Source: an uncultured Bdellovibrionales bacterium (GTDB taxonomy: Bacteria; Patescibacteriota; Minisyncoccia; Moranbacterales; UBA9337). From it: a stretch of 64,000 nt of DNA. The notes beneath the pieces were generated by a model. The model was not told the DNA's origin and searched no databases. It was given only the letters and a program-made list of their open reading frames with translations. The translations under genes were made by a program, and so were the position numbers. Where the stretch lies: the NCBI GenBank assembly GCA_964605525.1, contig CAZSCV010000002.1, positions 5,888-69,887 of the forward strand, given 5' to 3'. Shown one piece after another: positions 28,259-54,910 of this stretch. Each line of letters opens with the position of its first letter. The stretch's first letter is position 1.

Positions 28259-29131
28259 ATGATTGTCGGAGTAAATGAAATTTTGAGAAAAGCTAAAGAG
28301 GGGGGATATGCTGTCGGAGCTTTCAATGTCGTAAATATGGAAACTGTTCAGGCTATTTTGCAAGCCGCATCAGAATCTCGTTCTCCTGTAATACTTCAGG
28401 TAACGGAAAAAACAATGGATTACGCGGGAGGGCGGAATATTTTTCAGATTATCAAGAATACAGCCGAATTTTATCATAGCGAAGTTCCGGTAGGAATTCA
28501 CTTGGATCATGGAAAAAGTTTTGAGGTTGTTCAGCGGGCGGTAGAAATCGGATTTGATTCAGTTATGTATGACGGTTCGCGAAGGGAATATGAAGATAAT
28601 TTGGCGATGACAAAAAAGGTGGTGGATTTTTGCCAGAAAAATGCATCAGGAGGAGTGAGTGTTCAGGCTGAGCTCGGGAGCGTTCCATATCTTGGGGAAG
28701 TGGATATGAATGATATTGAATGGGAAAAGTATATGACTGATCCGGGACAGGCTGAGGAATTTGTGAGAGAAACCGGAATTTCTGCTTTGGCAGTGGCAAT
28801 TGGAAATGCTCATGGGTTTGCTAAAGAGCGCAAAGAGCCGGATTATGCGCGTTTGGAGATGATTAACAAAGCGGTGAATATTCCTTTGATTTTGCACGGA
28901 GCTTCCGATTGGGAAAATGGAAGAGTGAAGGAGGTTATTAAACGGGGAATTTGTTGTTTTAATGTGGATACTGCCACCAGAATGGCGTTTATTAATAATA
29001 TTATGTTGGCAATAAAAGATGAGGGTGGAGGTTCGTTTGATATGCGTCGGCTTTTGGGAAATGCCAGAGAGGCAATTAAAGAGGTGGTGAAGACAAAAAT
29101 GAAATATTTCGGAAGTGATGGAAAGATATAA
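28259..29131 (+). CDS. fba: class II fructose/tagatose-bisphosphate aldolase
   Basis: GGYAVGAFNV..PVILQ..IHLDHG..LHGAS class II FBA motifs. Confidence 0.9.
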   Translation: MIVGVNEILRKAKEGGYAVGAFNVVNMETVQAILQAASESRSPVILQVTEKTMDYAGGRNIFQIIKNTAEFYHSEVPVGIHLDHGKSFEVVQRAVEIGFDSVMYDGSRREYEDNLAMTKKVVDFCQKNASGGVSVQAELGSVPYLGEVDMNDIEWEKYMTDPGQAEEFVRETGISALAVAIGNAHGFAKERKEPDYARLEMINKAVNIPLILHGASDWENGRVKEVIKRGICCFNVDTATRMAFINNIMLAIKDEGGGSFDMRRLLGNAREAIKEVVKTKMKYFGSDGKI

Positions 29132-29353: not shown

Positions 29354-29389
29354 TCATCCACGTTTAAATAAAAGATGCCGTTTTTCCAA

Positions 29390-29527
29390 GAAATAATGAA
29401 TTTTTATTTTTCCAATTGTCCCCTTTGGTTAATGTATTTTTTCTTTGTCGACACTCGGTTGGCTCGTGCGTGAAGTTTTTGTTATATACGCACAAAGACA
29501 AGAGTAAAAATAAAAATTCATTATTTC
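29390..29527 (+). repeat. 138-bp element with 22-bp perfect terminal inverted repeats (GAAATAATGAATTTTTATTTTT / AAAAATAAAAATTCATTATTTC) and an internal GC hairpin, in the hypC-hypD spacer
   Basis: Arms at 29390-29411 and 29506-29527 are exact reverse complements; inner GTGCGT..ACGCAC stem. Confidence 0.8.
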
Positions 29528-29608
29528 TCGGAAAAGAATATAAAAATTATTTAAATGTGTAAATATTCTAGTTATTTGGTTAAGTCTTATATCGTAAAGG
29601 TAAAATAA

Positions 29609-30643
29609 ATGCAGCAAGAATCGATCAAAGAAATTAAAAAATTGGCCAAGGGAATCGGGCGGGAGGTGAATTTGATGGAGGTTTGTGGGACGCATACGCA
29701 GGCGATTAGTCGGAGTGGAATTCGCGGAATTTTGCCGAAAAATATCAACTTGATTACCGGACCGGGATGTCCGGTTTGTGTTACCTCGCAAAAGGATATT
29801 GATGCGATTGTGAGTTTGGCGCTGGCGGGAATTCCAGTGGCGACTTATGGCGATATGTTGAGAGTGCCGGGAAGGTTTGGAAGTTTGAATGAGGCGCGCG
29901 AAAAAGGGGCCGCGGTTTTTGATGTTTATTCGACCGAAGACGCTTTGAAATTGCAAAAAAAACATCCGGAGTTGGTTTTTTTCGGATTGGGATTTGATAC
30001 GACGGCGCCGATGACGGCGTGGGCGATTAAAAAAGGATTAACAACATATTCTACACACAAGACTTTTCTTCCGGCAATGAAAGCTTTGCTTGAGATGGGG
30101 GAAATAAGGATAGACGGATTCATCGATCCGGGACACGTGAGCGCGATAATCGGGAGCGAGCCGTATGAAGTTCTCAATGTTGCGCAGGTGATAACCGGAT
30201 TTGAGACGCAAGATATTTTGGAAGGAATTTTGATGTTGCTGCGCCAAATAAAAGATGAGCGAAAAGATGTGGAGAATCAATATTCCAGAGTGGTGAAGAA
30301 AGAAGGAAATGAAAAAGCGCGCGGTTTGATTTTGGAAGTTTTCGAAATCGGAAACGGTGATTGGCGCGGGTTCGGAATAATTCCCGGATCGGGATTGGAA
30401 ATCAAAAATGAATTTTCAAAATATGACGCGAAGAAAAAGCACAAAAATATCCTGGATAAAATCGATTTTGAAAAATCAAAAGACCCTGCCGGGTGCGCGT
30501 GCGGCGAGGTGATTCGTGGCTTGAAAACGCCAAAAAAATGCCCGATGTTCGGAAAAAGATGCACCCCGGAAAATCCAGTCGGACCGTGTATGGTATCGGT
30601 GGAAGGCGCTTGTAATAATTTTTTCAAAGAAAACAACCAATAA
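29609..30643 (+). CDS. hypD: hydrogenase maturation factor HypD
   Basis: CGTH, GPGCPVCV and the C-terminal CxxC..CxxC (CACGEV, CPMFGKRC) HypD motifs. Confidence 0.92.
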   Translation: MQQESIKEIKKLAKGIGREVNLMEVCGTHTQAISRSGIRGILPKNINLITGPGCPVCVTSQKDIDAIVSLALAGIPVATYGDMLRVPGRFGSLNEAREKGAAVFDVYSTEDALKLQKKHPELVFFGLGFDTTAPMTAWAIKKGLTTYSTHKTFLPAMKALLEMGEIRIDGFIDPGHVSAIIGSEPYEVLNVAQVITGFETQDILEGILMLLRQIKDERKDVENQYSRVVKKEGNEKARGLILEVFEIGNGDWRGFGIIPGSGLEIKNEFSKYDAKKKHKNILDKIDFEKSKDPAGCACGEVIRGLKTPKKCPMFGKRCTPENPVGPCMVSVEGACNNFFKENNQ

Positions 30644-50003: not shown

Positions 50004-51644
50004 ATGATTCAAAAAATAATAAATAGCAAGCTTTTTAGCGGCTCTCCAGTCGAATCGGTGGCAGGGGCAGCTTTGGTGATTTCGGTGGCCGGAATTCTGA
50101 GCCGTATTTTGGGATTGGTGCGAGATAGAATTCTTGCTTCTCGATTTGGAGCCGGAGATGTGCTGGACGTCTATTATGCTGCTTTTCGTGTGCCTGATTT
50201 GGTATATAATCTTTTGGTTGTAGGCGCGCTCAGTGCGGCTTTTATTCCTGTTTTTACGCGCTTGATTACGAGCAAGAAAAAAGACGAAGCACGCAAGCTG
50301 TCTTCCGGAGTGATAACATTAATAGTGCTTGCCGTGTTATTAATATCATCGATGCTGGCTATTTTTGCGCCACTAGTGATGAGTTTGGTTACCCCCGGTT
50401 TTTCTCCGGAAAAAATGAGCGATGTTGTTTATTTCACTCGGATTATGTTTTTGAGCCCGATTTTTTTGGGGATTAGCGCTGTTTTCGGAGGAATGCTGGT
50501 TTCGTATAAAAGATTTTTGGTTTATTCGCTGGCGCCGATTATGTACAATATCGGAATTATTATCGGCGCCGTGTTTTTCGTCAGAATTTTCGGTCCCGTT
50601 GGATTGGCATGGGGAGTGGTTCTGGGCGCGGTATTGCATATGCTGATTCAATATCCGGCGGCAAAAAAAACCGGATTTAAATACAGCTTTTCTTTAATGA
50701 AATCCGTGTGCGATAAAAATGTGCGGAAAGTAATTGTTTTGATGATTCCTCGCAGTTTGGGAATGGCGGTTAATCAAATAAATTTGCTGGTAATTACGAT
50801 TTTTGCATCGACTTTGGCGGCGGGAAGTCTGGCGGTTTTCAATTTTGCCAATAATATTCAAAGCGTTCCATTAGGACTTTTTGGAGTATCTTTTGCGGTA
50901 GCGGCTTTTCCGCATCTAAGCGGTTTGGCAGGAGAAAAAAGCCGCAAAGAATTTGCCCGGGTATTTTCACGAACTTTTCGAAGGATAATATTTTTTGTGA
51001 TGCCGATGAGTGTGGCTATTTTTGTTTTACGCGCAGAAATTGTGCGTGCGGTTTTGGGAGCAGGTCAATTTGATTGGGAGGATACAGTGCGAACACTTCA
51101 AGTGCTGGGAATTTTGTCGCTCAGTCTTTTCGCCCAAAGCTTGATTCCTCTTTTGGCGCGCTCTTTTTATGCGATTCATGACACAAAATTTCCTTTTTAT
51201 ATTGCGCTGGTGAGCGAAGCGGTTAATATTATTTTGGTAATAACGTTGCTGGAAAAATATCAAGTGATGGGACTGGCGATTGCTTTTTCAGTTTCCAGCA
51301 TTTTGAATATGTTTTTGCTGGTTGCAATTCTCCGGAAGAGGGTGGGGTATTTGGATGATAAAAAGATTGTTTCATCTTTTGTTAAAATCGGACTGGCTTC
51401 GCTTTTTGCCGGAGGAGTTATTCAACTCGGGCGTTATTATTTGAGTAATTTTATTTCTCTGGATACTTTGGCGGAAGTGCTGGTTCAGATTGTCATTTCG
51501 GGAGGAATGGGAGTGGCAACTTTTCTTTTGGGTTGCTATTATTTCGGAATTGAAGAATTTCACGATTTCAAAAAATCCATTCTGGTAAAAATATTCGGAA
51601 TGCCGGCGGACATAATCAAAGATCCGAATTCGATGGAGCAATAA
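50004..51644 (+). CDS. murJ: lipid II flippase MurJ (MviN)
   Basis: ILGLVRDRILASRFGAGDVLDVYYAAFRVPDL and the 14-TM MOP-superfamily profile. Confidence 0.9.
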   Translation: MIQKIINSKLFSGSPVESVAGAALVISVAGILSRILGLVRDRILASRFGAGDVLDVYYAAFRVPDLVYNLLVVGALSAAFIPVFTRLITSKKKDEARKLSSGVITLIVLAVLLISSMLAIFAPLVMSLVTPGFSPEKMSDVVYFTRIMFLSPIFLGISAVFGGMLVSYKRFLVYSLAPIMYNIGIIIGAVFFVRIFGPVGLAWGVVLGAVLHMLIQYPAAKKTGFKYSFSLMKSVCDKNVRKVIVLMIPRSLGMAVNQINLLVITIFASTLAAGSLAVFNFANNIQSVPLGLFGVSFAVAAFPHLSGLAGEKSRKEFARVFSRTFRRIIFFVMPMSVAIFVLRAEIVRAVLGAGQFDWEDTVRTLQVLGILSLSLFAQSLIPLLARSFYAIHDTKFPFYIALVSEAVNIILVITLLEKYQVMGLAIAFSVSSILNMFLLVAILRKRVGYLDDKKIVSSFVKIGLASLFAGGVIQLGRYYLSNFISLDTLAEVLVQIVISGGMGVATFLLGCYYFGIEEFHDFKKSILVKIFGMPADIIKDPNSMEQ

Positions 51645-51706
51645 AGAAAAAAACAGATGCCCATCTTCTTGCCTAATCGGCAATTTTTTGAACCAAATAT
51701 AGTTAG

Positions 51707-51783
51707 TTAGCTGATGTATTAAAAAATTCTTTTCGCTTTCGTCGAATGACGAAAGATTTAATTGGGGCAAATTTATTTTTAAA
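51707..51783. repeat. left ~77-bp inverted repeat of the cassette (contains hairpin CTTTCGTC-gaat-GACGAAAG)
   Basis: Its outer 29 nt and inner 25 nt are reverse-complementary to 52675-52743 with 2 mismatches. Confidence 0.85.
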
Positions 51784-52666
51784 TATCATTTTCAATTAAC
51801 TTTTCAAATGTTATTTTTTCTAAATGCATAAAATCATCGATATCCATAAGAAAAACTCTGGAATTTCTTAGGGATAGCGCACCAGGAGAAAATCCTGAGA
51901 ATGATACCAAGAAGGCATAGTCTGCACTTTCGCTTACCAGCGTGCCAAATAATTCTCTAACAAAGTTTGGATTGATCGGTTTTGCATATTTCTTACATTG
52001 GATAATAATTTTCTTACCATTATGTTGAGCCACGACATCAACTCCCTTATCACCAGAGCCAGGAGTGGCGTATGCTTCTATCCCCATTTTATTAAGATGC
52101 GAAGCCACTTCTATCTCAAACTCTCTCCATGAAAGTAGTTTCCAATAGTCGACTTGTTTTTTCGCGTCATTTTGGATGCAAACCGCATAATCAACAAATT
52201 TTTTTATTGTAGGTGAGAAATTAAGATAAATTTTACTTAACATAGAATGTGTTATCATCATTAAAATAAATCCAGGAAAGAAAAAAGATATTACTAAGCT
52301 TGATAAAAATTCCGTAGATTTTGAGTCATTCATAAAAACAAAGACTACGTATAGACTAATCGCGTATCCAATAAGAACGCCAAATATACCCCAAAAAGCA
52401 TATGCTTTCGCAGTATTTTTTAGATTAATCAATTCAGGCTTCTCTAAATTAAATGTTTTTTGTTCAATAGTGTGATTTGAATTGTTTGATAATTGTTTTG
52501 ATTCTTCATCGATATGTCTAAAAATTTCCAAAGAACAATATTCGCTAATTTTTTTAGCTAAAAATGGATTAATATAAAACTTAGCTACATTATCGCTTGA
52601 TATATCGGAGCCAGCCAAACTTTTTGCCATCAAATATTTATCCACTGATACTTTAAATTTTTTCAT
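51779..52666 (-). CDS. membrane-anchored protein with a C-terminal Mrr-type restriction-endonuclease catalytic domain (Mrr_cat)
   Basis: 2 TM helices mid-protein; C-terminal WREFEIEVASHL..GDKGVDVVAQHNGKKIIIQCKKY..VRELFGTL matches the Mrr_cat signature (D..(D/E)xK core). Confidence 0.7.
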   Translation of the reverse strand: MKKFKVSVDKYLMAKSLAGSDISSDNVAKFYINPFLAKKISEYCSLEIFRHIDEESKQLSNNSNHTIEQKTFNLEKPELINLKNTAKAYAFWGIFGVLIGYAISLYVVFVFMNDSKSTEFLSSLVISFFFPGFILMMITHSMLSKIYLNFSPTIKKFVDYAVCIQNDAKKQVDYWKLLSWREFEIEVASHLNKMGIEAYATPGSGDKGVDVVAQHNGKKIIIQCKKYAKPINPNFVRELFGTLVSESADYAFLVSFSGFSPGALSLRNSRVFLMDIDDFMHLEKITFEKLIENDI

Positions 52667-52674
52667 CTGCCTGA

Positions 52675-52743
52675 TTTAAAAATAAATTTGCCCCAATTAG
52701 ATGCCCGTTAGGGCCGAAAAGAATTTTTTAATATTTCAGCTAA
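52675..52743. repeat. right ~69-bp inverted repeat of the cassette (contains hairpin GCCC-gtta-GGGC)
   Basis: Reverse complement of 51707-51783 apart from the central hairpin, which is replaced by a different hairpin. Confidence 0.85.
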
Positions 52744-52821
52744 CTAGTTATATGCGAACTGGTTGATTTTTTGGTTTGGATTGGCTATAATTTGAATATA
52801 AAATTCTAATCATAACGCCTT

Positions 52822-53029
52822 ATGAATGGAAATTATAAATTTCCAAGCAAGGATCCTATATACCAACTAAAACAAGAAATGAAGTTGCGGAAATTTAGTC
52901 CAAAAACTATCAAATCATATCTTTATTATATCACGGATCCGTTGAAATATTCAAACTGTACAGGAATTGCTGGGGCATGCTAATATTAGAACGACTCAGA
53001 TTTATGCGAAAGTGACCAATCCACGTTAA
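52822..53029 (+). pseudogene. decayed tyrosine site-specific recombinase (XerC/D / phage-integrase family) remnant
   Basis: Frame 1 encodes the SAM-like N-terminus ..KLRKFSPKTIKSYLYYI..; a shifted frame encodes the C-terminal box ELLGHANIRTTQIYAKVTN (the catalytic Tyr region); ~250 aa of core are missing. Confidence 0.6.
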
Positions 53030-53059
53030 GAAATATTAAAAGCCCATTGGAATGAAATT

Positions 53060-54910
53060 ATGAACAATATTCGAAATTTTTGCATAATCGCTCATATTGA
53101 CCATGGAAAATCGACTTTATCCGATCGGCTTTTGGAATTTACCGGAACCGTGGAAAAGCGAAAGATGAAAGAACAGCTTCTGGATCAGATGGATTTGGAA
53201 CGCGAGCGGGGAATAACCATCAAACTTCAGCCCGTTAGAATGAATTATAAAGAATATGTTTTGAATTTGATTGACACTCCGGGGCATGTGGATTTCGGAT
53301 ATGAAGTTTCGCGTTCGCTGGCGGCGGTGGAAGGGGCGATTTTGTTAGTGGATGCCACCAAGGGAGTGCAAGCGCAAACCCTTTCCAACTTGTATTTGGC
53401 GATTGAACAAGGTCTGGAAATAATTCCAGTAATAAATAAAATTGACCTGCCTAATGCCGAAGTGGAAAAAACCAAAAAAGAAATTGTGCATATTTTGGGA
53501 TGCGATGAAAGTGAAATTCTTTCAGCTTCAGGCAAAACCGGAATAGGCGTGGAGGAGATAATCCGACGAGTGATAGAAAAAGTTCCTTCTCCGAAAGGAA
53601 GCCTTGAAAAACCGTTGCGCGCGCTTATTTTCGATTCAAAATACGATATTTACAAAGGCGTTTTGGCTTACGTTCGAATCGTGGACGGGCAAGTAAAAAG
53701 AGATGACAAAATTTTTATGATGGCGACAGAGCGCGGAACTTCCGTGGTGGAGGTGGGAAGTTTCCGCCCGGCTCTCAAAAGTGAAGAGAATTTGAAAGCG
53801 GGGGATATCGGATATGTGGCAACCGGATTTAAGAGCGTGGAATATTGCCGGGTGGGCGATACGATAACCGCTCAGGGTATTCAAATTGTTAAAAATATCG
53901 AAAACGTTCAAAGTGAAAAAGACCAGTTAAACAGATTGGAACAATTAAAACAGCCTGGCGCAGTGATGGCGCTACCCGGGTACAAGGAAGTGCGTCCGAT
54001 GGTATATGCCAGTTTTTATCCGGTTGAAGGAGATGAATATACCTTAATGCGCGACGCTTTGGAAAAATTGCGCCTTAATGATGCAGCTTTTGTTTTCGAA
54101 CCGGAAAGCAATCCGGCGTTGGGAAAAGGCTTTCGCTGCGGATTTTTGGGAATGCTTCATTTGGAGATTATTCAGGCGCGGCTTGAACGTGAATTTGAAA
54201 TTTCACCCACCATCACAACTCCTAGTGTTGTGTATCGGGTAAAAATCAAAGATCAAGAAACAGAAAAAATAATTTATTCCGCTTCTGATATGCCGGACGC
54301 TTCAATGATTGAATCAATTTCTGAACCGCATGCAAAGCTGGATATCATTACTCCTTCCGGATATCTTGGCGCGGTAATGGATTTGATGACTTCCATAAGA
54401 GCGGAATATAGAAATACGGAATATATTGATCAAGAAAGAGTTTTGCTTAGTTACGAAGCGCCACTTACGGATATTATTGTTAATTTCCATGATGAACTTA
54501 AAAGTGCTTCCTCGGGTTTTGCTTCAATGAATTATGAAGTGATTGGATATCGGCAATCAGACTTGGTAAAAATGGATATTTTAGTGGCGGAAGAAAAAGT
54601 GGAGGCGCTTTCTCGAATTGTTCCAAGAGAAAAAGCTCTTTCGCAAGGAAAATCGGCCGTTTCCAAACTCAAAGATTCTATTCCGCGCCAGAATTTTGTT
54701 ATTGCGATTCAGGCGGCAATTGGCGGAAAAATTATTGCCAGAGAAACAATCCGTCCTTTCCGCAAAGATGTTATTTCGAAATTATATGGCGGAGATGTTA
54801 CGCGAAAGAGAAAATTGTTGGAAAAACAAAAGAAGGGAAAGAAAAAGATGAGGAATATTGGAAAAGTTTCCATTCCGCCGGAGGCGTTTTTATCGGTGCT
54901 GAAGAAATAG
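53060..54910 (+). CDS. lepA: elongation factor 4 (LepA)
   Basis: [34 protein letters not shown]; conserved LepA C-terminal domain. Confidence 0.93.
   Translation: MNNIRNFCIIAHIDHGKSTLSDRLLEFTGTVEKRKMKEQLLDQMDLERERGITIKLQPVRMNYKEYVLNLIDTPGHVDFGYEVSRSLAAVEGAILLVDATKGVQAQTLSNLYLAIEQGLEIIPVINKIDLPNAEVEKTKKEIVHILGCDESEILSASGKTGIGVEEIIRRVIEKVPSPKGSLEKPLRALIFDSKYDIYKGVLAYVRIVDGQVKRDDKIFMMATERGTSVVEVGSFRPALKSEENLKAGDIGYVATGFKSVEYCRVGDTITAQGIQIVKNIENVQSEKDQLNRLEQLKQPGAVMALPGYKEVRPMVYASFYPVEGDEYTLMRDALEKLRLNDAAFVFEPESNPALGKGFRCGFLGMLHLEIIQARLEREFEISPTITTPSVVYRVKIKDQETEKIIYSASDMPDASMIESISEPHAKLDIITPSGYLGAVMDLMTSIRAEYRNTEYIDQERVLLSYEAPLTDIIVNFHDELKSASSGFASMNYEVIGYRQSDLVKMDILVAEEKVEALSRIVPREKALSQGKSAVSKLKDSIPRQNFVIAIQAAIGGKIIARETIRPFRKDVISKLYGGDVTRKRKLLEKQKKGKKKMRNIGKVSIPPEAFLSVLKK

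Follow-up and report, generated by a model that had tools for sequence, protein, structure and literature searches.

Positions 51690-53055 of the 64-kb stretch of contig CAZSCV010000002.1 analysed here (64,000 nt, referred to below as the window) lie between murJ and lepA in the genome of an uncultured member of Candidatus Moraniibacteriota (Patescibacteria), and contain a single 295-aa nuclease gene enclosed by long inverted repeats next to the remnant of a tyrosine recombinase. This region is interpreted as an integron-like array for gene capture, of a kind found in the candidate phyla radiation (CPR, Patescibacteria), that has decayed and holds one cassette, a reading to which we give a probability of roughly three in four. 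What the window preserves is an array frozen at a single cassette, its recombinase dead and its last spacer cut short. In layout and logic the system resembles an integron without being a canonical one. Related loci used for comparison are cited by L numbers.

Cassette ends, recombinase and spacer modules

The single-gene unit of the window, whose borders were refined by comparison with other cassettes, spans 51706-52744 on the minus strand (1,039 bp) and reads 5' GTTAGCTGAAAT ... ACATCAGCTAAC 3'. It is bounded by inverted ends of about 79 nt (51706-51784) and about 71 nt (52674-52744). The original prediction, made from the letters of the window, had described inverted repeats of about 70 bp around the 295-aa minus-strand gene; these were recovered as two nested arm pairs, an outer one at 51697-51735 and 52715-52753 (39 nt, 90% complementary) and an inner one at 51756-51784 and 52674-52702 (29 nt, 97%). 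Each arm sequence occurs exactly twice in the window, against 0 in 100 shuffles. The central hairpins differ in sequence and are still hairpins in both copies, as had been noticed: CTTTCGTCgaatGACGAAAG at 51736-51755 has an 8-bp stem and GCCCgttaGGGC at 52703-52714 a 4-bp stem. The terminal repeat at the 3' end of the cassette ('A type', 51706-51784, minus strand) begins as reverse complement with GTTAGCTGATGT and overlaps the stop codon, in line with the earlier placement beside it, whereas the repeat at the 5' end ('B type', 52674-52744, minus strand), beginning with GTTAGCTGAAAT, ends 7 nt before the ATG and not 9 nt as first stated.

A degenerate pattern of the inner arm, matched against metagenomes of the Joint Genome Institute (JGI), hit eight contigs, and a repeat-profile search found, in L012-L016 and L019, single genes enclosed by inverted pairs. 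The further repeat copies that had been proposed as a check thus exist, and they stand around varied cargo: in other contigs from metagenomes the same ends surround seven or more unrelated cargo genes, the cargos within this repeat family being an S-adenosylmethionine (SAM) methyltransferase, inositol monophosphatase, Bro-N, an HNH nuclease, Mrr and proteins without a Pfam match. In the window-type repeat family the end before the start codon always reads GTTAGCTGAAAT... and carries a short GCCC-type hairpin, while the end at the stop codon always reads GTTAGCTGATGT... and carries a long CTTTYGTC-type hairpin; the two types are never mixed in about 10 cassettes. An exact inner-arm scan of 185,579 species genomes gave 0 matches, as did the viral contigs. 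Carriage by phages was considered and is unsupported: five viral matches to module junctions lie in coding sequence without the cassette grammar and are attributed to chance, and the single viral outer-arm match (L011) reaches an E value of about 1 against the repeat profile.

The 17 complete cassettes (365-1125 bp) follow one grammar, 5' GTTRNNNGAAAT ... ACATCNNNYAAC 3', which the ends of the window cassette fit. The 5' end is GTT-R-NNN-GA-AA-T and the 3' end, written as reverse complement, GTT-R-NNN-GA-TG-T (directly A-CA-TCNNNYAAC), so that the cassette ends are inverted repeats with a fixed 2-nt mismatch. The four variable core bases match within each of the 17 cassettes, and terminal complementarity extends over 22-115 nt. 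The grammar also holds for cassettes whose internal repeat sequence is unrelated. The ends are asymmetric both at positions 10-11 (AA versus TG) and in their hairpins (short versus long), genes run from the AA end to the TG end in about 20 of 22 cassettes, and the polarity of the ends tracks the direction of the array in 17 of 17. Arrays show 4-5 co-oriented 12-mer matches to the grammar within 3-5 kb; the window has 3 such 12-mers per 64 kb, which is the chance frequency.

The tyrosine recombinase remnant (52822-53055, plus strand; Xer-like 'Cand' type) is divergent from the cassette and gives a weak match to Phage_int_SAM_4. The deletion and frameshift reported earlier were confirmed: about 200 residues are gone, and what is left corresponds to residues ~4-37, 238-263 and 265-273 of a tyrosine recombinase of about 273 aa, in three reading frames. 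Searches by tblastn with intact recombinases gave 81% identity over residues 238-263 (L018) and 47% over residues 4-37, with LRNIKSPL in a shifted frame. Intact enzymes were found in relatives, as had been suggested, among them that of L018 (272 aa) with Phage_int_SAM_4 and Phage_integrase domains. Its best NCBIfam match is recomb_XerA_Arch (NF040815), borderline at 218.6 bits against a cutoff of 220, and the integron-integrase model TIGR02249 matches in two stretches only, its 207 bits falling short of the cutoff of 265. In comparisons with solved structures, IntI4 (2A3V) and XerA (4A8E) receive about the same score; the alignment with XerA is collinear, and residues 175-194 of L018 (19 aa) correspond to residues 177-239 of IntI4 (62 aa), the IntI-specific insert of about 43 residues being absent.

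More than 6,429 proteins belong to this recombinase family at E<1e-30; they are 65-71% identical and mostly labelled Patescibacteria. The intact relatives have a SAM-like N-domain and a catalytic domain without an arm-binding domain, as expected of 'Cand'/XerA-like simple tyrosine recombinases, of which the window copy is a fragment. The family is the 'Cand' Xer-related subgroup of simple tyrosine recombinases from candidate phyla (Smyshlyaev et al. 2021, PMC8138268), which that study places beside groups that take the part of Xer in other taxa; it reports no cassette array and landing site next to 'Cand' genes. The array recombinase resembles this subgroup and archaeal XerA in being a simple tyrosine recombinase of about 273 aa from candidate phyla.

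An attI-like landing site lies directly upstream of the intact recombinases in L018, L027, L029, L030, L036 and L037. Two boxes of the TTCGCATA type, spaced by about 41 nt, make up this site, and after the second come 7 nt and then |GTT and the first cassette; as a motif it reads TTCGCATA-N6-7|GTT, and the arrays begin there and read away from the recombinase. The corresponding site of the window (52745-52821, minus strand) reads ...TTCAAATTATA (decayed box, 52786-52796)...CAGTTCGCATA-TAACTA|GTT, with the TTCGCATA box at 52751-52758; up to the first cassette, CAGTTCGCATA-TAACTA|GTTAGCTGAAAT, it has the same layout, with the first box decayed and the spacer 1 nt shorter. First cassette and recombinase are divergent in all six of these loci and in the window remnant. 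Genes upstream of the recombinases are mostly on the opposite strand and of accessory type, among them genes for GNAT, Fic, nucleotidyltransferase, HepT/MNT, GmrSD_N, beta-lactamase-fold, DNA methyltransferase, RibD_C, GDSL lipase and HIT proteins.

Between the cassettes of an array stand spacer modules built as AAC | A + 11-bp stem + 34-209-nt interior + stem + A(A/T)AC | GTT, with a constant 1-nt/4-nt bulge beside the invariant AAC/GTT. Sixteen modules were analysed, with interiors replaced by a linker and a bulged G removed from five. The 11 stem pairs are 89% paired, and eight of them show changes on both sides, i.e. compensatory ones; the observed pairing and covariation are reached in 0 of 500 shuffles, and slid controls give 15-40% pairing. 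Between neighbouring cassettes the four variable bases are paired in only 48% of cases. AAC and GTT are without variation, an extra G is present in 5 of the 16 modules, and the spacing is unlike the attC consensus. The interior follows a plan of GGTTM, hairpin 1, a single-stranded YCWCCCAAAT motif, hairpin 2 and ACTTC, which is kept across distant CPR lineages (e.g. L015 1277-1388, L016 2030-2126, L030 8617-8776); the module interiors could be an RNA element, if the array is transcribed. Rfam gave no match on repeats or modules, neither in the window region nor in the arrays. The truncated last spacer module of the window (51690-51705, minus strand) reads AAC|TAACTATATTTGGTTC and resembles the 5' half A-CGGCATATCTGG-TTC; it has no 3' partner stem.

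Related arrays differ in cassette content. L018 and L027/L028 have recombinases that are 97% identical and flanks that are 91-93% identical, yet L027 has two extra cassettes beside the landing site, and the order of the modules is not the same. L015 and L016 carry a methyltransferase cassette with 91% identity; the homology stops at its borders, and the modules on either side differ. L013 and L027 have repeats and a downstream module in common (80% over 184 nt) around unrelated cargos. In these comparisons both AAC| and |GTT behave as exchange points.

Mini-cassettes without an open reading frame (ORF), made up of the terminal repeats alone, were seen in L018 (2120-2280, GTTATGCAAAAC-loop-GTTTTGCATAAC, about 37 nt) and in L027 (2756-2950, GTTAGACAAAAT...ATTTTGTCTAAC, about 62 nt). 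A GC-rich variant module, GTGTGCGCCT...AGGCGCACAC, comes after each of them, and the pair of mini-cassette and module occupies different positions in the two loci.

The Mrr cassette itself was found again in L010, from another sample, with a 92% identical protein and both repeats. The upstream (5') flank of L010 is unlike that of the window from exactly GTTAGCT outward. The 3' repeats of window and L010 show 0 differences over 76 nt, while the gene has a dS of 0.17; the 5'-end hairpin of L010 carries a compensatory change from GCCC/GGGC to GTCC/GGAC, and pairing is maintained in both end hairpins via such changes. When lone repeat copies were folded, the small central hairpin alone formed (z-scores -0.2 to -2.6), which means that one copy by itself makes no self-contained palindromic site, and the idea of a repeat copy acting as a stand-alone attC-like hairpin was ruled out. 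A hand-built hypothetical circular junction folds at -56 kcal/mol, a value which serves to picture the inverted repeat and adds no independent evidence. On either side of the cassette stands one copy of a 6-bp direct repeat, TAGTTA (51700-51705 and 52745-52750); both copies are accounted for by the attI-like spacer and the truncated module.

In the proposed mechanism the recombinase would cut and rejoin at the AAC|GTT junctions. Cassettes would be excised as circles, with or without the neighbouring module, and inserted at the attI-like site or at another junction. The junction of such a circle would read ...ACATCAGCTAAC, then 0-10 nt or a spacer module, then GTTAGCTGAAAT..., and an empty site would be TTCGCATATAACTA joined to TATTTGGTTC, or two modules without a cassette between them. 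Because stems 34-209 nt apart covary, the junction is probably recognised in a folded form, like the attC of integrons. The window cassette should be fixed in place unless a paralogous recombinase acts in trans, since about 200 residues are lost and the module is truncated. Two elements of the original prediction, a discrete mobilisable single-gene cassette with defence-type cargo and a functional link between this cassette and the neighbouring recombinase remnant, are supported by the comparison.

The locus between murJ and lepA

The left flank of the region is murJ (50004-51644, plus strand; Pfam MurJ, E=1.7e-99), in a synteny DUF4012-murJ-...-lepA common to relatives, and the right flank is lepA (53060-54910, plus strand; Pfam GTP_EFTU and LepA_C), with a recombinase upstream of lepA also in L030 and L036. 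The empty site, murJ followed directly by lepA, was looked for as proposed and found in five relatives, L021, L022, L024, L025 (Komeilibacteria) and L026 (Saccharibacteria), with a gap of 80-125 nt. The Portnoybacteria genome L036 has DUF4012, murJ, one cassette, a complete module, an intact recombinase, a 273-aa gene and lepA in this order, and L030 a long array, the recombinase, the 273-aa gene and lepA. By this comparison the site is a conserved array locus that was lost in some lineages and is decayed in the window. The cassette thus does lie between murJ and lepA as described at first; it need not be a recent insertion there.

The 273-aa gene between recombinase and lepA is conserved (L036 10893-11714, L030 10868-11689) and has no Pfam match. 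It is missing from the window, in which the recombinase remnant stops 5 nt short of lepA.

Of the genomes found, L020 (Candidatus Moraniibacteriota JALNYX010000004.1) is the closest, and its MurJ is 91% identical. After murJ it has the same ATATAGTTA|GTTAG junction that is present at the truncated module of the window; the cassette behind this junction is another one, with repeats that differ and a cargo of 179 aa. No further cassettes, spacer modules or second recombinase copy were found in the 64-kb window. G+C content is 0.26-0.33 over 51600-53050, compared with 0.40-0.47 in the flanks.

GC skew is positive throughout the window and the 20.8-kb locus of L036, without a switch of sign, and the window contains no dif-like palindrome of the TTCGCATA-N5-9-TATGCGAA type; the landing site is therefore not a terminus dif. 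The proposal that it is a chromosomal dif (cf. XerS/difSL, XerH/difH) was dropped for these reasons.

Promoter-like matches in the region number 10 where 8.2 are expected, and like the terminator-like matches they are not above chance. One of them, a sigma-70-like TTGAAT-18-TATAAT with TG at 52954-52925 (minus strand), lies within the recombinase remnant, is directed at the cassette and brings to mind the Pc promoter of class 1 integrons; such matches occur at chance level. No convincing promoter or ribosome-binding site could be placed in the 5' repeat. A weak Rfam match to AsrC at 53059-53135 (minus strand; 28 bits where the gathering score is 111, E=9.6e-6 in a 4-kb search) overlaps the start of lepA and is probably spurious. 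The sole other long inverted repeat of the window is an intergenic palindrome of 154 nt at 29382-29535 (39-nt arms, 90% complementary, 76 nt apart; the adjoining ORFs end at 29131 and start at 29609), unrelated in sequence to the cassette repeats.

Known systems and alternative explanations

With sedentary chromosomal integrons such as the Vibrio superintegron the CPR arrays share a tyrosine recombinase at the head, divergent from the array, and an adjoining landing site with direct-repeat boxes at which the cassettes begin, which is the arrangement of integrase and attI in canonical integrons. Further points of agreement are co-oriented, mostly single-gene cassettes of about 0.4-1.1 kb with invariant AAC...GTT borders, start and end of one cassette that are complementary to each other and not to the neighbouring cassette, imperfect hairpin sites with a bulge and a variable loop, and accessory or defence cargo in arrays whose content varies between related strains. 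The CPR arrays differ in their recombinase, which is without the IntI-specific insert and stands equally close to XerA and IntI; accordingly the additional domain around patch III that characterises canonical IntI is missing from the intact relative L018. They also differ in cassette ends that are 22-115-nt inverted repeats with a fixed 2-nt mismatch, in contrast to 7-bp core sites, and in a module with a 1-nt/4-nt bulge, an 11-bp stem, a conserved multi-hairpin interior and a CACCCAAAT motif, which is not strictly tied to one cassette.

Several points weigh against a gene-capture array of this kind. No excised circle, empty attI-like site or recombination product was observed, mobility being deduced from locus comparison alone, and in the window no activity is demonstrable because the machinery there is dead. 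The recombinase has no equivalent of the insert with which integron integrases recognise attC in its folded state, for which reason a conventional double-strand reaction is equally possible. Integron cassettes have no counterpart to the long terminal repeats. The mobile unit is not cleanly defined, because one cassette can have different modules on both sides. About eight recombinase loci were examined out of a family of more than 6,400 members.

The alternative that survives best retains the same elements and assigns their movement to classical Xer/lox-type double-strand recombination in place of the integron-type reaction on a folded single strand, with a circular-cassette core TCAGCTAAC / GTTAGCTGA (9-bp inverted arms) around an overlap of about 6 bp; the host's Xer-like recombinase would integrate the circle at a similar site, as in integrative mobile elements exploiting Xer (IMEX) or the pdif modules of Acinetobacter. 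We regard it as possible rather than probable. A recombinase that is collinear with XerA and without the IntI insert would suit such a reaction, as would a family with 65-71% identity that is treated in the literature as the Xer of candidate phyla (PMC8138268). The TAGTTA repeat would be the expected trace of a shared overlap region, and two junction types that are 3 nt apart in spacer length would block inversion and permit excision. On the other hand, the array junctions hold modules of 61-209 nt with covarying stems, which a double-strand core does not need, and other cassettes are without a flanking direct repeat. The lack of a GC-skew switch in the window and L036, which argues that the attI-like site is not a chromosomal dif, and the lack of a dif-like palindrome in the window also speak against it, and the arrays are co-oriented, whereas pdif modules alternate. 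Like the Acinetobacter modules and IMEX, the CPR cassettes are bounded by inverted recombinase sites with a presumed Xer-type engine, and are shuffled between replicons or arrays with defence, toxin-antitoxin or resistance-type cargo. Unlike these, the CPR arrays have no 28-bp XerC/XerD sites (11-6-11), and they show a single recombinase at the array head, polar arrays, long covarying hairpin modules and a chromosomal mid-replichore locus.

The original prediction had also considered a transposon-like passenger cassette. In this explanation the unit would resemble a mobile insertion cassette or a MITE (a miniature transposable element with inverted repeats), i.e. the terminal inverted repeats of an insertion sequence with a passenger gene, moved by a DDE transposase in trans. 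Long terminal inverted repeats around a gene that is not a transposase are indeed common to both, and the 6-bp TAGTTA at the window ends would pass for a target duplication. The duplication is absent from L012, L013, L015 and L016, the direct repeat being found in the window copy only, where attI-like spacer and truncated module account for it. The ends of the cassettes are polar and asymmetric, following the grammar of recombinase sites, and co-oriented in arrays; the elements always adjoin a tyrosine recombinase and its conserved site, and no transposase gene was seen in any locus examined. This origin is considered very unlikely.

An inverton, in which the recombinase would turn the gene on or off by inverting it between the repeats and of which the window would hold a fossil, had been suggested by a whole gene between inverted repeats, the adjoining tyrosine recombinase and a repeat that ends 7 nt before the start codon. 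The probability of this is slight: the end types are consistently different and never swapped in about 10 cassettes of the repeat family, in 17 cassettes the polarity is that of the array, many different genes are enclosed by the same repeats, and all four independent assemblies (L001-L003, L010) have one and the same orientation.

Hardly more credible is a native, immobile gene whose 5' and 3' untranslated regions happen to have a palindrome of promoter or terminator type (symmetric terminators or pairing of the untranslated regions): the 3' hairpin scores terminator-like on the plus strand, the repeats are tight against the ORF and an RNA duplex between 5' and 3' ends is conceivable, but this reading appears largely refuted by the comparative data, since relatives are without the gene at the site or have a different cassette there, unrelated genes are flanked by the same ends in arrays, promoter- and terminator-like matches are not above chance, and generic bidirectional terminators, as named at the outset, do not agree with two repeat copies only in 64 kb.

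The nuclease gene and the wider CPR arrays

The cargo gene of the window cassette (51779-52666, minus strand) encodes a protein of 295 aa, in which an N-terminal region precedes two transmembrane helices (hydrophobic around residues 90-112 and 120-142) and the C-terminal part is a Mrr_cat domain of the PD-(D/E)xK type. The check by hidden Markov model that had been proposed for this domain was positive: Pfam Mrr_cat (PF04471) matches residues 178-282 with E=4.5e-22 and scores 78.8 bits where the cutoff is 21, the match extending over positions 4-114 of the 115 in the profile. The nuclease motif GSGDKGVDVV...IIQCKKY is intact, and dN/dS is 0.16-0.21 against two homologues, values which indicate that the gene is under purifying selection. 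PADLOC gives a match to the candidate system PDC-S02 (E=2.5e-11) and also to the ZorD nuclease domain. With Mrr and other type IV restriction nucleases the protein shares the C-terminal Mrr_cat fold and the GxxDxGxD...QxK motif, and its size and C-terminal nuclease are as in PDC-S02; it differs in having an N-terminal region of about 85 aa and two membrane helices in place of the winged-helix domain that reads DNA. The protein is probably a one-gene defence against phages or foreign DNA.

The view that a membrane-tethered Mrr_cat nuclease is unusual could not be upheld. At least one strongly hydrophobic segment is present in 136 of the 150 top cluster representatives, so membrane-anchored Mrr_cat proteins are common. 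The full-length protein family is small, with six relatives in a word-indexed search; an exhaustive search, which reached 10,960 relatives at E<1e-3, left 9 clusters when the limit was set at E<1e-30. By these counts this full-length family alone is rare, and membrane-anchored Mrr_cat proteins in general are common.

In L004/L005 an 83%-identical Mrr homologue lies 33 nt upstream of a bSEFIR defence gene (481 aa, PADLOC E=2e-109; L004 6001-8363). The bSEFIR start codon of L004 falls within the counterpart of the 3' hairpin of the window cassette, and a shortened 5' repeat, GTTAGGAGATTT...ATTTAATTGAGG, is all that remains there. The Mrr-bSEFIR pair may be a two-gene cassette or a decayed one. 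A 39%-identical Mrr homologue (P0004) was seen in L007 (1052-3421) together with two small genes between 39-nt inverted repeats. This region has several copies of a REP-like element (CCCAGGTTCGCTTATCGCCGACGATCT) and belongs to an island with a primase, an HTH_17 protein and a phage-type integrase, a mobile context of another kind for the same protein family.

Beyond the window, the comparison suggests that CPR/Patescibacteria harbour a widespread, unrecognised counterpart of integrons, run by a Xer-like 'Cand' recombinase without the IntI insert, in which long asymmetric cassette ends alternate with AAC...GTT hairpin modules and one repeat 'chassis' carries many unrelated ORFs, fitting closely at start and stop codons; for this wider claim we see an even balance of chances. 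No description of such arrays in CPR was found in the openly searchable literature, subscription-only literature lying outside that search.

Integrons are the textbook gene-capture platform, and both the origin of integron integrases and the making of cassettes are open questions. A second, structurally distinct cassette-and-array system with a Xer-like engine that lacks the integron-specific domain would open both questions to comparison; if true, it may further reveal the way in which cassettes come about and in which Xer-type enzymes gave rise to integron integrases. The arrays suggest a new family of compact site-specific recombination parts. In the window, the odd gene between inverted repeats becomes an interpretable fossil with a probable membrane-associated defence nuclease. 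The host branch comprises a very large number of poorly known bacteria with tiny genomes, in which accessory and defence genes are scarce, and the arrays would give a handle for finding such genes in CPR metagenomes.

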